Of a stretch of DNA of 64,000 nt, positions 16,750 through 24,110 are shown piece by piece (position 1 is the stretch's first letter; each line of letters starts with the position of its first letter). This DNA is from Moheibacter sediminis (lineage in GTDB: Bacteria; Bacteroidota; Bacteroidia; Flavobacteriales; Weeksellaceae): assembly GCF_900176425.1 (NCBI RefSeq), contig NZ_FWXS01000009.1:1-64000 (forward strand). The letters are read 5' to 3'. The notes beneath the pieces were generated by a model, which saw only the letters and a list, made by a program, of their open reading frames with translations, was not told the origin of the DNA and ran no database searches. The translations under genes were made by a program, and so were the position numbers.

Positions 16750-19700
16750 TTATGGTAAAATATGAACTTTTAATCCTTCATTCCAATGTTTAAATTCTTC
16801 TGTGTAATATAAATATGCTGAAGAAGCAACCCCTGTAAATACACCCGGAACTTCTGCTTTGAAAACCAGGTCAACAATTTTAGACTCATTTGGATTTAGC
16901 TTTCTCCAATACAAAACCAAGAAATTATCCATAATTTCATAATAATCTACTTTTTCCTTTTCGATCAACTCTTTGAGTAATGTTGGCTCTGCAGAAAGTC
17001 CGCCCGGGATGCCTATTTGGGCAATGGTCATTGGAATTTCTTTGGATGAGAGATTTTTCACTTCTATATGCATCTGAGTTATTTCTCCAACTTGTACATT
17101 TGATTTTGAAAGGGAAGTCTTCAAGTGAACTTTGGAGTCTTTGCTATTGTCAGGCAGGCTGCTTCTGTACCAGTAACTAAAATCTACGAAAGTCAAATGT
17201 GGTGCGGCAATTTCCATTATAATTTCATTTTTCTCTGGTTTTAAATATTTTAATACATTGATCTCAAAACTGGATTTATTTTCTTTTTTACTTAATTCAA
17301 TGTATTCCGAAATGGTTTTATCTACTACAATTTCTCCATTTATTTTTAGAAACAGGACATTCCCTTTTGGCGCAGATTGGTTGTACAATTTATTGTATTG
17401 ATAAATGGATTTTAGTGCGAGCCCCGTTGCCTGAGTAGAACCAAAATATCCATTACTTCCTAGTTCTATTATTTCTTTCATGACTTGGTTTAACTCGAGC
17501 GAGATGGAATTTTTTTTCATCAAAGCCTGTGCATAAAGTGATAGAATCTCTACTTTAAGTGATTTTCCTCCCGAATACGTAATTGAACCTTCCGCTGATA
17601 ATTTATCTATTGCTTGTCCAAAAACTTTAGATTTAAGTATCTCCATCAATTCTTCATAGTTATCTGTTTTCCCCAATTGGTGAGCAGTCAATGCCATCAG
17701 AGCCAAACGATAAGCATCCTTTGAATTTTTTGCTTCTTTTAAGGAAATTTGATATTGTTCTTCAATATTTTTTTCACCTGAAAAACTTAAAGCGTAATTT
17801 ATATAAGCGTTTCCAATGAGATATTTTTCACCTCTGAATCCATATTTTCCATCTCCTTGTTGGTATCCGCCTATGCTATCTTTTCTCGAAATTAGCCACT
17901 CACGTGTGCGGTTGACCATTTTATTATCAACTGAAACGAAATCCCTTAATTCAGTAAACTGAAGCAGTCCAAAGGCAGTTAAGGTTTCATGAGCGGGAGG
18001 TTTTCCGTACCAATCAAACCCACCACCTTTTACCTCGTAGGCCGCTAATTTTTTATATCCAGATTCTAAATATTTACGTGCTTTTTTATCCAATTTTATA
18101 CTTTCTTCATCTTTATCAAATTCCAAAAGTTTTAAAGCGTAAATGTTAGGAAAAGTAGAAGATGATACTTGTTCGAAACAGCCATGAGGCTGGCTGATGA
18201 TTTGTTCTATTCCTTTTAGAATCGGTCCGATTGGATTTAAGTAAAGTGTAAAATAAGCCGATTCACTTCCTTTAATCACATTTTTTGCATCAAATTCTAA
18301 TCGTGTTTTGTCGATCGTTGATTTGGCATAACGGATAGGAAAACCACGCTCGAAAACCTCCAAATCTTTTGTGACGGATTGACGGAAAGTATCGGTCAAA
18401 AGGTTTACTCTAAATTTGTGTTTTCCCTTCATCCCATTCTCTACCAGCATTGGGACATATTGTGTAAAAGTTTCGTCAGGTTTTAAAAACAAATTAAATT
18501 TGTAATCTTGCAATGTCAGTGCTCTTGGTAAATCATTGGTTAAATTTGCAACAATGTTTTCTGATAAATTATTTTTGACCCACACAGGCATTTGGATTTT
18601 GTCACCTTCGGTTGTATACAGAGGAAATTTCACGTCCATTTCTATTTTGTCTTGAGTCGAATAAGTAGTTTCAGATCTCCCGATATTTCCAGTTCCATCA
18701 AAGCCTTCGGTGATTATGCGGAAAACCGTACTTTCGTCAGAATTGTAGAAATAAAATTCAGCTTCTCCCTTTTCGTCAGTTGTCAAATTGTAATTCCAAT
18801 AAATACATTGTCTGAAATCATCTTTATTTGCGGTGGATATCGAAGAATATTTGGGAATATAAAAGGATTTGGCATAATCAAATGACTGATAACGATCTCC
18901 CATTCGCTTGTAATAGTATGTCTCGAAAATATCGGTTTTTTTCCCAATGTTGATGTTCAGATTTTGCGGATTGGAAATTCCACCTTTTGTGTTGATGATA
19001 ATTACACCGTTACTTGCTCTTGATCCATATATAGATGTAGCCTCAAGTCCCTTTAAAACTGTTACAGAATTGATTGCAGAAGGTGAAATGTTTTGAGTAA
19101 AATTGGAATTCGAGTTAGAGTAAACAACTCCATCTACTACCATAAGCGGATTGCTCTGTCCCGAAAGTGAGCCAACACCTCGAATTGTAATCTGGGAATT
19201 AGCTCCAGCACTTCCGGAAATTTGTAATCCGGCAACTTGACCGTTTAGGGCATCATCTATGGATGTGACAGGGGAAAGCTCGGATTGACTTACAATAGAA
19301 TATGAGCCCATTCTTTGGGCGGGATCTAATTTAATACCACCGAGCAGAGTTACTGCTTCAAGTGAGACTTCACCATCTTGATCCCAGTCCCAATCCTCAT
19401 CATTGTTATAACCTATCTCGCCCTTTTTTTCCTTGGAAATATCCTGCACTTCTTTTTCATTTTCTTTAATTAGAACAGGACTAAGTTCTTTGTAGGATTC
19501 ATTAGGTTTTCGTTTGATCTCTAAAATTTCATCTTTTTTCGGTTCAGGAAACTGAATGGTAATATTTTCATCGGATCTTCTTTTTGCGTAAATGCTCCCT
19601 TCGCTAAAAGGCGCGGGAAGATTAAATTTAAAATAGCCGTTTTCATCAGTTTCTTCTATATAAAGATAATCGTCCAGAATCAAATAAACAGTTGTTGGAT

Positions 19701-24110: not shown

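Follow-up and report, generated by a model that had tools for sequence, protein, structure and literature searches.

A SusC-like barrel lacking a plug and an adjacent macroglobulin carrying one: a probable split TonB-dependent transporter in Moheibacter sediminis and other Bacteroidota

TonB-dependent transporters are regarded as single polypeptide chains in which the plug folds inside the barrel of the same protein. In the SusC/RagA transporters (BT2264, the levan SusC BT1763, RagA, ButC), a CarboxypepD_reg-like beta-sandwich (the N-terminal extension, NTE), a TonB box and a plug precede a 22-strand barrel on one chain, and the gene for a SusD-like lipoprotein lies adjacent to that of the transporter. 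Here we describe a gene pair from Moheibacter sediminis (Flavobacteriales, Weeksellaceae) in which these elements are distributed over two polypeptides. The pair lies in the first 64,000 nucleotides of contig NZ_FWXS01000009.1 (assembly GCF_900176425.1), the whole of which is referred to below as the window. Gene 1 encodes a 911-aa barrel protein of the SusC type that lacks a plug, and gene 2, immediately downstream, a 1540-aa thioester protein of the alpha-2-macroglobulin (A2M) superfamily that carries both a TonB box and a plug. The barrel fold and the N-terminal sandwich are those of the SusC/RagA transporters; unlike in these systems, the gene downstream of the barrel encodes the A2M-plug protein, and no SusD-like gene is found in the neighbourhood.

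Several described systems resemble one or the other half of this arrangement. Bacterial A2Ms are thought to be periplasmic protease traps held by membrane partners, and the type II protein MagD of Pseudomonas is kept in the periplasm by MagA/B/F, partners encoded in the same operon (PMC5764988). Among the TonB-dependent proteins, transducers of the FecA/FpvA type signal to anti-sigma factors through their periplasmic N-terminal parts (PMC11658791), and Oar, a transporter with a CarboxypepD_reg N-terminus, is reported to be needed for the secretion of the PopC protease (PMC6434023). Both the transducers and Oar are single-chain proteins with small N-terminal domains and involve no thioester protein. 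Braun et al. (J Bacteriol 2003) reportedly found that the separately expressed cork and barrel of FhuA and FepA can reassemble and are active in vivo. These split transporters are laboratory constructs, whereas the split considered here appears natural, ancient and conserved, and places the plug inside another large protein. No paper linking a macroglobulin with a plug, TonB or SusC was found in the searchable literature, which leaves subscription journals outside its coverage, so that an earlier description is possible.

The two open reading frames (ORFs) lie on the minus strand in different reading frames. As described in an initial annotation made from the sequence, they encode 911 and 1540 aa, with 2 nt between the stop of gene 1 and gene 2, and the barrel protein ends in Phe (LKF). 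Both products are 100 % identical to NCBI entries from M. sediminis, named "SusC/RagA family TonB-linked outer membrane protein" (gene 1) and "MG2 domain-containing protein" (gene 2). Such generic names ("MG2 domain-containing", "TonB-dependent receptor plug domain-containing", "SusC/RagA family") are the only ones that proteins of the two families carry in the databases.

That the 911-aa protein has no plug, as the initial annotation had proposed, is borne out by several lines of evidence. Its NTE and barrel align with true SusC proteins, and the block of some 170 residues that comprises the TonB box and the plug is missing, with about 65 unrelated residues in its stead. The protein yielded no Pfam match of any kind and so no Plug match, and Plug (E <= 0.01) was found in 0 of 46 barrel homologues from other genomes. 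The SusC/RagA model TIGR04056 was matched at positions 676-981 only, which correspond to the C-terminal part of the barrel, and at 94.2 bits the protein falls short of the family cut-off of 368. Nor does the family consensus of the linker between NTE and barrel contain a TonB-box motif of the ExVVVxGYG type; the NTE-to-barrel stretch is usually about 91-94 residues long across the homologues. An AlphaFold2 (AF2) model of the protein (predicted local distance difference test, pLDDT, 78; predicted template-modelling score 0.73) displays the sandwich at residues 22-103, disorder at 104-163, with pLDDT values below 50 in the linker, and the barrel at 166-911. The alignment behind this model was shallow for the barrel family, the profile search having returned ten close Moheibacter-clade proteins and otherwise ordinary SusCs only. 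Foldseek ranked BT2264 (5fq6) first among the structures matching the barrel (E 1.6e-39, TM-score 0.67), followed by the levan SusC and RagA; altogether, the solved SusC, RagA and ButC barrels match at E 1e-39 to 1e-27 and classical siderophore transporters far behind (~1e-15). The barrel family comprises 337 clusters at 50 % identity (E <= 1e-30), most of whose members measure 820-1020 aa. A family-specific block at approximately residues 679-826, absent as such from the SusC/RagA transporters, is much more conserved than the remainder of the barrel (GF..G..G, P.PDF, GG..WNGT..L.Y.G.S, NRW.RYG) and partly folds as helix in the AF2 model; candidate roles are a cap or a site at which a ligand or a partner binds.

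The missing elements are found in the product of gene 2. Pfam identified MG2 (residues 36-123), Plug (PF07715, 689-790; 60.6 bits against a cut-off of 23.9, E 2.4e-16), A2M/MG7 (858-942) and the thioester domain (TED, 1046-1326), together with weak bMG10 and A2M_recep matches at the C-terminus. The SusC signature TIGR04057 was reached at its cut-off and TIGR04056 was matched at positions 79-256 only, again below the family cut-off (124.6 versus 368 bits). In a profile built from 21 full-length homologues, positions ~650-810 match solved SusC and RagA proteins in their TonB-box and plug region, and positions 846-1517 match human A2M, TEP1, CD109 and C3, the alignment with human A2M (6tav) covering residues 729-1454 of the latter. 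We take residue 729 to lie just past the bait region. Because A2M_BRD was matched by Pfam upstream of the insert in three relatives (P0046, P0054 and P0047; P and L numbers are our handles for proteins and loci) and the match to A2M resumes at residue 729, the insert between BRD/MG6 and MG7 occupies the bait-region site. This site, at which A2M-superfamily proteins have a short, exposed, protease-sensitive bait, holds a module of about 300 aa made of an NTE, a linker, a TonB box and the plug. The linker (residues 608-668) has bait-like properties and is, from its sequence, a candidate for a functional bait. The CarboxypepD_reg-like domains which the initial annotation had recognized at the N-terminus of the barrel protein and inside the macroglobulin lie below Pfam significance in both window proteins; their identity is supported by the sandwiches in the AF2 models and by the homologues, in that CarbopepD_reg_2 or CarboxypepD_reg was matched in 30 of 46 barrel homologues, and CarbopepD_reg_2 directly upstream of Plug or TonB_C in P0046, P0054 and P0062.

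Structure prediction agrees with this domain assignment. The AF2 model of residues 400-1540 (pLDDT 75) features a confident sandwich at 540-607, disorder at 621-689, TonB box included, and a confident MG7-CUB-TED-MG8 body in which the helical TED reaches pLDDT values of 80-95. Foldseek retrieved CD109, A2ML1, A2M, Salmonella A2M and ECAM (E 1e-41 to 1e-35) with the 1540-aa protein, the body fitting native-state macroglobulin structures better than activated ones; the C-terminal region matched the MG7-to-C-terminus portion of native ECAM (4ziu, TMt 0.71). The protein is thus an A2M-like protein with a thioester motif and a plug, as first annotated, rather than a standard fused receptor. Beyond that annotation, our analysis places the plug at the bait site, finds that a conserved TonB box is brought along with it, and shows that the order of the genes is incompatible with a simple frameshift.

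With the type I bacterial A2Ms (E. coli ECAM/YfhM, Salmonella A2M), the gene 2 product shares the macroglobulin (MG) domains, MG7, a TED with CxEQ motif and the C-terminal MG domain, with structural matches to 4u48, 5a42 and 4ziu. These relatives are lipoprotein-anchored and pbpC-linked, whereas the Moheibacter protein has no lipoprotein anchor, no pbpC-type neighbour and, at its bait site, the NTE, TonB-box and plug module; its presumed tether would be to the outer rather than the inner membrane. By sequence, its C-terminal half resembles animal A2M, TEP1, CD109 and C3 (188-137 bits) more than it does ECAM or Salmonella A2M (~75 bits). MagD, for its part, lacks a thioester and has its partners at the inner membrane, whereas the thioester motif is invariant here and a barrel of the outer membrane is the only partner to be conserved.

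Conservation was assessed over 111 non-redundant family members, segments being scored by their mean top-residue frequency. The thioester motif GCFEQ is invariant (111/111). The plug motifs IRG, PLxVVDG and YGxRxxNGVI are conserved at 90-100 % (R731 in 110 of the 111 sequences, G732 and G789 in all, P742 and L743 in 108, G748 and G783 in 109, Y782 in 105), and the plug core scores 0.54 versus 0.55 for the TED. The most conserved short segment is the TonB box, L[ED]EVVV[VT]GYG, with a score of 0.74 (column counts: E 99, V 103, V 91, V 98, G 91, Y 91); the least conserved segment of the whole protein is the linker that precedes it (0.22), which is rich in K, E, N and S and varies in length from 44 to 79 aa. 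The length of the N-terminal MG region is nearly constant across the family (428-436 aa). On the barrel side, an acidic residue (E or D) occupies the E636 position of the G-x-E motif in 97 of 111 members.

The two genes are associated across genomes. At least 572 relatives of the A2M-plug protein were confirmed in species-representative genomes; the locus counts that follow refer to the best 80 genome loci when the search started from the A2M side and to 80 metagenome loci when it started from the barrel side. A barrel homologue was present at 72 of the 80 genome loci; with few exceptions, it lies on the same strand and its upstream end point is within ~100 nt of the A2M-plug gene (at L033 the barrel lies downstream), and three of the eight misses are contigs broken at that point. 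Conversely, the A2M-plug gene was found 3-191 nt downstream of the barrel gene at 74 of the 80 metagenome loci, the six exceptions consisting of three barrels with a plug of their own, two contig ends and one other gene order. The adjacency noted in Moheibacter is thus conserved whichever gene the search starts from. The intergenic gap mostly measures 1-12 nt (110 non-redundant pairs). The pair occurs in the Flavobacteriales, Chitinophagales, Cytophagales and Bacteroidales, in genera that include Flavobacterium, Chryseobacterium and Chitinophaga, some species of which are cultivable, and clustering of the neighbouring ORFs at 80 loci revealed no other gene family conserved around it across the phylum. 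The barrel neighbour is missing in all four A2M relatives that lack an intact plug (P0046, P0062, P0047 and P0066). From the two-way pairing and these four plug-deficient relatives, it follows that an intact plug and a barrel are present together and absent together. We note that one full pair (L009, JASGCW010000030.1, "MAG: Limnohabitans sp.", a metagenome-assembled genome) lies on a contig binned as a betaproteobacterium, all other loci belonging to Bacteroidota; this is probably a binning error rather than a transfer.

From the genomic co-occurrence of the two genes and the conservation of their motifs, we regard in-trans docking of the plug into the partner barrel as likely. We further consider it probable that the two genes constitute one conserved module, namely a naturally split SusC-like TonB-dependent transporter of the kind which the initial annotation had suspected; an outer-membrane-anchored protease trap, a role deduced from homology to A2Ms, is the likeliest of the functions considered, yet a more tentative proposal that may well prove incorrect. 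To our knowledge, both ends of the plug face the periplasm in all solved TonB-dependent transporters. Since, in addition, the 1540-aa protein has a plain signal peptide with neither a lipobox nor a type IX secretion system (T9SS) C-terminal domain in its sequence or Pfam matches, the whole A2M body is most simply placed in the periplasm. For the same reasons, the possibility raised in the initial annotation that the macroglobulin is threaded through the barrel is unlikely. A lipobox-like motif was seen in only 2 of the 111 family members. The plug is internal to the macroglobulin, with ~690 residues before and ~740 after it; both its ends being taken, it cannot be fused to a barrel, which must therefore be a separate protein. 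A separate barrel gene would indeed seem to be the only topologically simple solution, and the internal position of the plug accounts for the gene order, the presence of an NTE on both proteins and their strict pairing. The pair would thus represent a natural two-chain TonB-dependent transporter and, at the same time, an outer-membrane-tethered, TonB-coupled thioester macroglobulin, each part of which belongs to a known superfamily.

In the mechanism that we propose, the plug would enter the partner barrel from the periplasmic side and seal its lumen; the macroglobulin would thereby be kept in the periplasm, tethered beneath the outer membrane, with its TonB box open to the grip of TonB-ExbBD. 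Activation of A2Ms requires a break in the bait chain, upon which the downstream segment retracts from the central channel (PMC9352918). By analogy, cleavage of the disordered linker or of a plug segment would amount to such a chain break and could lead to collapse of the macroglobulin and exposure of the thioester, so that an intruding protease would be captured covalently at the membrane it had just crossed. Pulling by TonB could add gating, resetting or sensing to this scheme. One may go further and imagine a thioester trap mechanically wired into an outer-membrane gate, in which the plug is at once the seal of the barrel and part of the trigger of the macroglobulin; the trap would be set off at the site of entry, either when TonB extracts the plug or when a protease or protein toxin on its way in cleaves the plug or linker, and in Chryseobacterium a plug borne by an anti-sigma-like protein (see below) would compete for the barrel and report to an ECF (extracytoplasmic function) sigma factor. 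This extended scheme, which would make the pair the first natural two-chain TonB-dependent transporter, is speculative and we hold it to be rather improbable in its entirety.

A number of observations weigh against the proposed docking and trapping. Of the two acidic residues expected in the lock region of the barrel, only E636 is clearly conserved, the column of the second being unconserved or misaligned. The TonB box of the window protein and of the Moheibacter clade (LEAVTLLGG) is degenerate relative to the family consensus. The plug modelled alone (689-799) attains pLDDT values of 55-65 only, a moderate confidence that is as expected for a plug without its barrel. Comparison of distance matrices (mirror-tree) indicates co-inheritance of both proteins (r up to 0.97) and no correlation specific to the plug, whose segment has the lowest value of all (r = 0.64). 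There is no adjacent barrel at L060, L062 and L080, and the order or distance deviates at L033 and L145. Finally, the neighbours of the pair in the window (RtcB/RlaP, alpha/beta hydrolase and M16 peptidase genes) offer no functional hint.

Alternative explanations differ in how much of this evidence they accommodate. A frameshifted or misassembled ordinary SusC gene would account for the unusual look of a plug-less SusC and for nothing else; the gene order is wrong for a split SusC, in that the plug follows the barrel and is located 689 residues inside the second protein, and more than 140 independent loci, which belong to four orders, share the two-gene arrangement. Together with the lack of Plug in the 46 homologues and the 337 clusters of the barrel family, mostly of 820-1020 aa, gene order and recurrence exclude a frameshift, a pseudogene or a misassembly for practical purposes. 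It is also conceivable that the plug does not dock at all and is a relic of domain shuffling or a handle for binding TonB or peptidoglycan, the barrel being closed by its own loops and acting alongside the macroglobulin on some other grounds. The absence of special plug-barrel co-variation in the mirror-tree analysis would fit such a scenario, as would the relatives that have exchanged the plug for TonB_C, in which the insert may only connect to the TonB system. A relic would not, however, retain its core motifs at 90-100 % in 111 sequences, and the presence of the barrel follows that of the plug, the plug-deficient relatives without a barrel including the TonB_C variants; we therefore find this explanation very hard to credit.

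Other readings assign the pair a different task. The barrel could be a dedicated secretion pore through which the macroglobulin, in part or in full, is brought to the surface by means of TonB energy; the plug would then serve for targeting or as a stopper, and trapping would take place outside the cell. The reported requirement of Oar for PopC secretion would be a precedent (PMC6434023). The strongly conserved TonB box, the conserved barrel block at ~679-826, which could be an exit or docking site, and the T9SS-type C-terminal domain of the plug protein added at Chryseobacterium loci are compatible with export. It is nonetheless unlikely given that the A2M-plug protein itself has neither a T9SS C-terminal domain nor a lipoprotein export signal, that a folded macroglobulin of ~170 kDa is too big for a 22-strand barrel while thioester formation needs folding, and that the periplasmic ends of the plug in solved transporters do not favour it. 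Import of a peptide, protein or glycan, with the macroglobulin as a periplasmic platform replacing SusD and trapping as a secondary matter, strikes us as equally unlikely, even if the conservation of the TonB box and plug motifs is like that seen in functional transporters, the closest barrels (SusC, RagA and ButC) are importers of glycans, peptides and a ubiquitin-like protein, and the A2M-plug gene stands in the usual position of the missing SusD gene downstream of the barrel. The invariance of GCFEQ in all 111 sequences and the conservation of the TED at the level of the plug point to selection on the thioester chemistry, for which a passive platform would have no need, and genes for catabolic enzymes, regulators or inner-membrane transporters show no conserved association with the pair. 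A further possibility is that of an envelope sensor, in which a stress response is alerted to attack on the outer membrane by a protease or bacteriocin when the bait or plug is cleaved or the plug displaced, trapping again being secondary. Some support for a link to transcription comes from Chryseobacterium, where genes for an ECF sigma factor and an anti-sigma-like plug protein lie upstream of the barrel gene at 12-16 loci; these genes are limited to one genus in our sample and missing from the window and most loci, and Pfam found no signalling (STN) domain in the gene pair, which leaves sensing a distinctly unlikely primary function.

Relatives with other architectures shed light on how the parts may be combined. 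P0046 (L163:7200-12125) is an A2M-like thioester protein with TonB_C (PF03544) at the insertion site, P0062 (L161:8001-13208) is another with a partial plug beside TonB_C at that site, and Pfam found no plug match in P0047 and P0066. It would seem that the bait site of macroglobulins has repeatedly received components of the TonB machinery. In Microscilla marina (AAWS01000005.1, L164:5574-5963), a 129-aa ORF consisting of CarboxypepD_reg only is found just upstream of an A2M relative without a detectable plug and is perhaps what is left of a barrel gene that has been lost. Among proteins that do contain a plug, those most closely related to the barrel are single-chain proteins of ~1660-1770 aa in which an NTE (CarbopepD_reg), VIT, VWA, a plug and a barrel follow one another, an order that was derived from scans of L099 and L119 only. 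They include L099:4536-9548 and L119:4103-9235 on metagenome contigs (~1670-1710 aa; tblastn E 2e-77 and 5e-68 against the barrel) as well as P0275, P0290, P0323, P0347 and P0384 (1660-1770 aa; phmmer E ~1e-58 to 1e-70). We know of no description of such proteins. Their VIT-VWA module, placed ahead of the plug, resembles the inter-alpha-trypsin-inhibitor heavy chain, so that here too a large periplasmic module related to protease inhibitors or adhesion hangs on the plug; in contrast to the Moheibacter pair, the module is N-terminal to the plug, plug and barrel form one chain, and there is no thioester domain. The existence of these relatives therefore indicates that the barrel clade tolerates large periplasmic modules on the plug.

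At the 12-16 Chryseobacterium loci, the ECF sigma factor gene and that of the anti-sigma-like inner-membrane protein are located directly upstream of the plug-less barrel gene. The 821-aa representative from a metagenome-assembled genome of Chryseobacterium aquaticum (L031:2161-5156) has a short cytoplasmic N-terminus and one transmembrane helix, and in addition a TonB-box-like IEEVVVMGYS, Plug, VWA and a Por_Secre_tail-like end. Judging from these features, it looks like an anti-sigma factor with a plug of its own and hence like another protein that might supply this barrel with a plug. At L168:662-8715, three genes of ~900 aa stand in tandem, the first and third of which encode MG2, CarboxypepD_reg and Plug without the thioester half. 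The middle one (878 aa) was considered as a barrel and rejected (hhalign probability 0.4 %). P0117, a likewise short MG-plus-plug protein (~900 aa), stands alone without a barrel partner; the MG-plus-plug proteins of the L168 type are a separate family.

Table 1. Positions in the window of the two genes, of the domains and motifs of their products, and of the region upstream of gene 1
Feature	Window positions	Strand	Evidence
Gene 1: plug-less SusC-like outer-membrane barrel protein, 911 aa (P0121)	21375..24110	-	ORF, translation, exact database match
Signal peptide of barrel protein, residues 1-19, MKQGFFLFFLIVHIVALGQ, without lipobox	24054..24110	-	Sequence; AF2 helix 2-15
N-terminal beta-sandwich (NTE, CarboxypepD_reg-like), residues 22-103	23802..24047	-	AF2 strands, pLDDT ~65-80
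Linker in place of SusC TonB box and plug, residues 104-165	23616..23801	-	SusC alignment, AF2, translation checked
SusC-like beta-barrel, ~22 strands, residues 166-911, ends LKF	21378..23615	-	AF2, Foldseek
Gene 2: A2M-superfamily thioester protein with SusC-type NTE, TonB box and plug, 1540 aa (P0001)	16750..21372	-	ORF, translation, exact database match
N-terminal MG domains, residues 18-460, after signal peptide 1-17 (MKRLILLFLVIPFLSFG, no Cys)	19993..21321	-	Pfam MG2
Internal beta-sandwich (SusC-type NTE, CarboxypepD_reg-like), residues 540-607	19552..19755	-	AF2 pLDDT 83-91
Hypervariable linker, K/E/N/S-rich, predicted disordered, residues 608-668	19369..19551	-	Conservation, AF2 pLDDT <50
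TonB-box-like motif LEAVTLLGGI, residues 671-680	19333..19362	-	Translation, family columns
TonB-dependent-receptor plug, residues 689-799	18976..19308	-	Pfam PF07715, TIGR04057, profile match, translation
MG7 (Pfam "A2M"), residues 858-942	18547..18801	-	Pfam
TED, residues 1046-1326; GCFEQ 1064-1068 at window 18169-18183	17395..18237	-	Pfam TED_complement, E 1.3e-16
C-terminal MG8/receptor-binding-like domain, residues 1400-1540	16753..17175	-	Weak Pfam, AF2, Foldseek
72-nt intergenic region 5' of gene 1	24111..24182	-	Read from sequence

Past the stop of rtcB, the region upstream of gene 1 contains an imperfect hairpin (AATCCCAGG...CTTGGGATT), followed by an AT-rich stretch with TAnnTTTG-like elements, and possibly represents a promoter proper to the gene pair. 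A scan of this region for sigma-70 promoters and terminators gave hits not above those in shuffled sequence, with a consensus that is unsuited to Bacteroidota. Directly upstream of the pair lies a cluster of the RNA-repair type (24183-27408, minus strand) in which the genes of two RlaP-family nucleotidyltransferases (354 and 248 aa) precede that of an RtcB ligase (458 aa), and downstream of gene 2 a convergent alpha/beta-hydrolase gene ends 3 nt away. Two adjacent genes for M16 (insulinase-type) peptidases of 444 and 679 aa are found at 11903-15288 on the minus strand, the former product matching Peptidase_M16 (active-type) and Peptidase_M16_C, the latter one Peptidase_M16_C alone. In the clustering of neighbouring ORFs at 80 loci, neither the M16 peptidase genes nor the RtcB/RlaP and hydrolase genes were linked to the pair in other genomes. 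Elsewhere in the window are five closely packed tRNA genes (Pro, Asp, Tyr, Glu, Lys; 30258-30656, minus strand), a second tRNA-Asp gene (45998-46072) and two 2-kb stretches (4001-6000 and 38001-40000) with 25 % G+C and positive GC skew, most others having ~32-40 %; these two stretches are possibly foreign or non-coding DNA.

The module described here is common, given its at least 572 relatives in species-representative genomes and 337 barrel clusters. A plug naturally supplied by another protein bears on how plugs enter barrels during assembly and on whether they can leave or be exchanged during the transport cycle, and would provide an experimental handle in that plug and barrel can be manipulated separately. 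If the proposed split is correct, plugs would be deliverable to, and perhaps exchangeable in, assembled barrels. A TonB-coupled tether at the outer membrane would also represent a third way of stationing a macroglobulin-type protease trap, besides the lipoprotein anchor that ECAM uses and the Mag complex at the inner membrane, and the presence of a force-bearing module gripped by TonB at the trigger position of an A2M raises the possibility of a thioester trap under mechanical or positional control.

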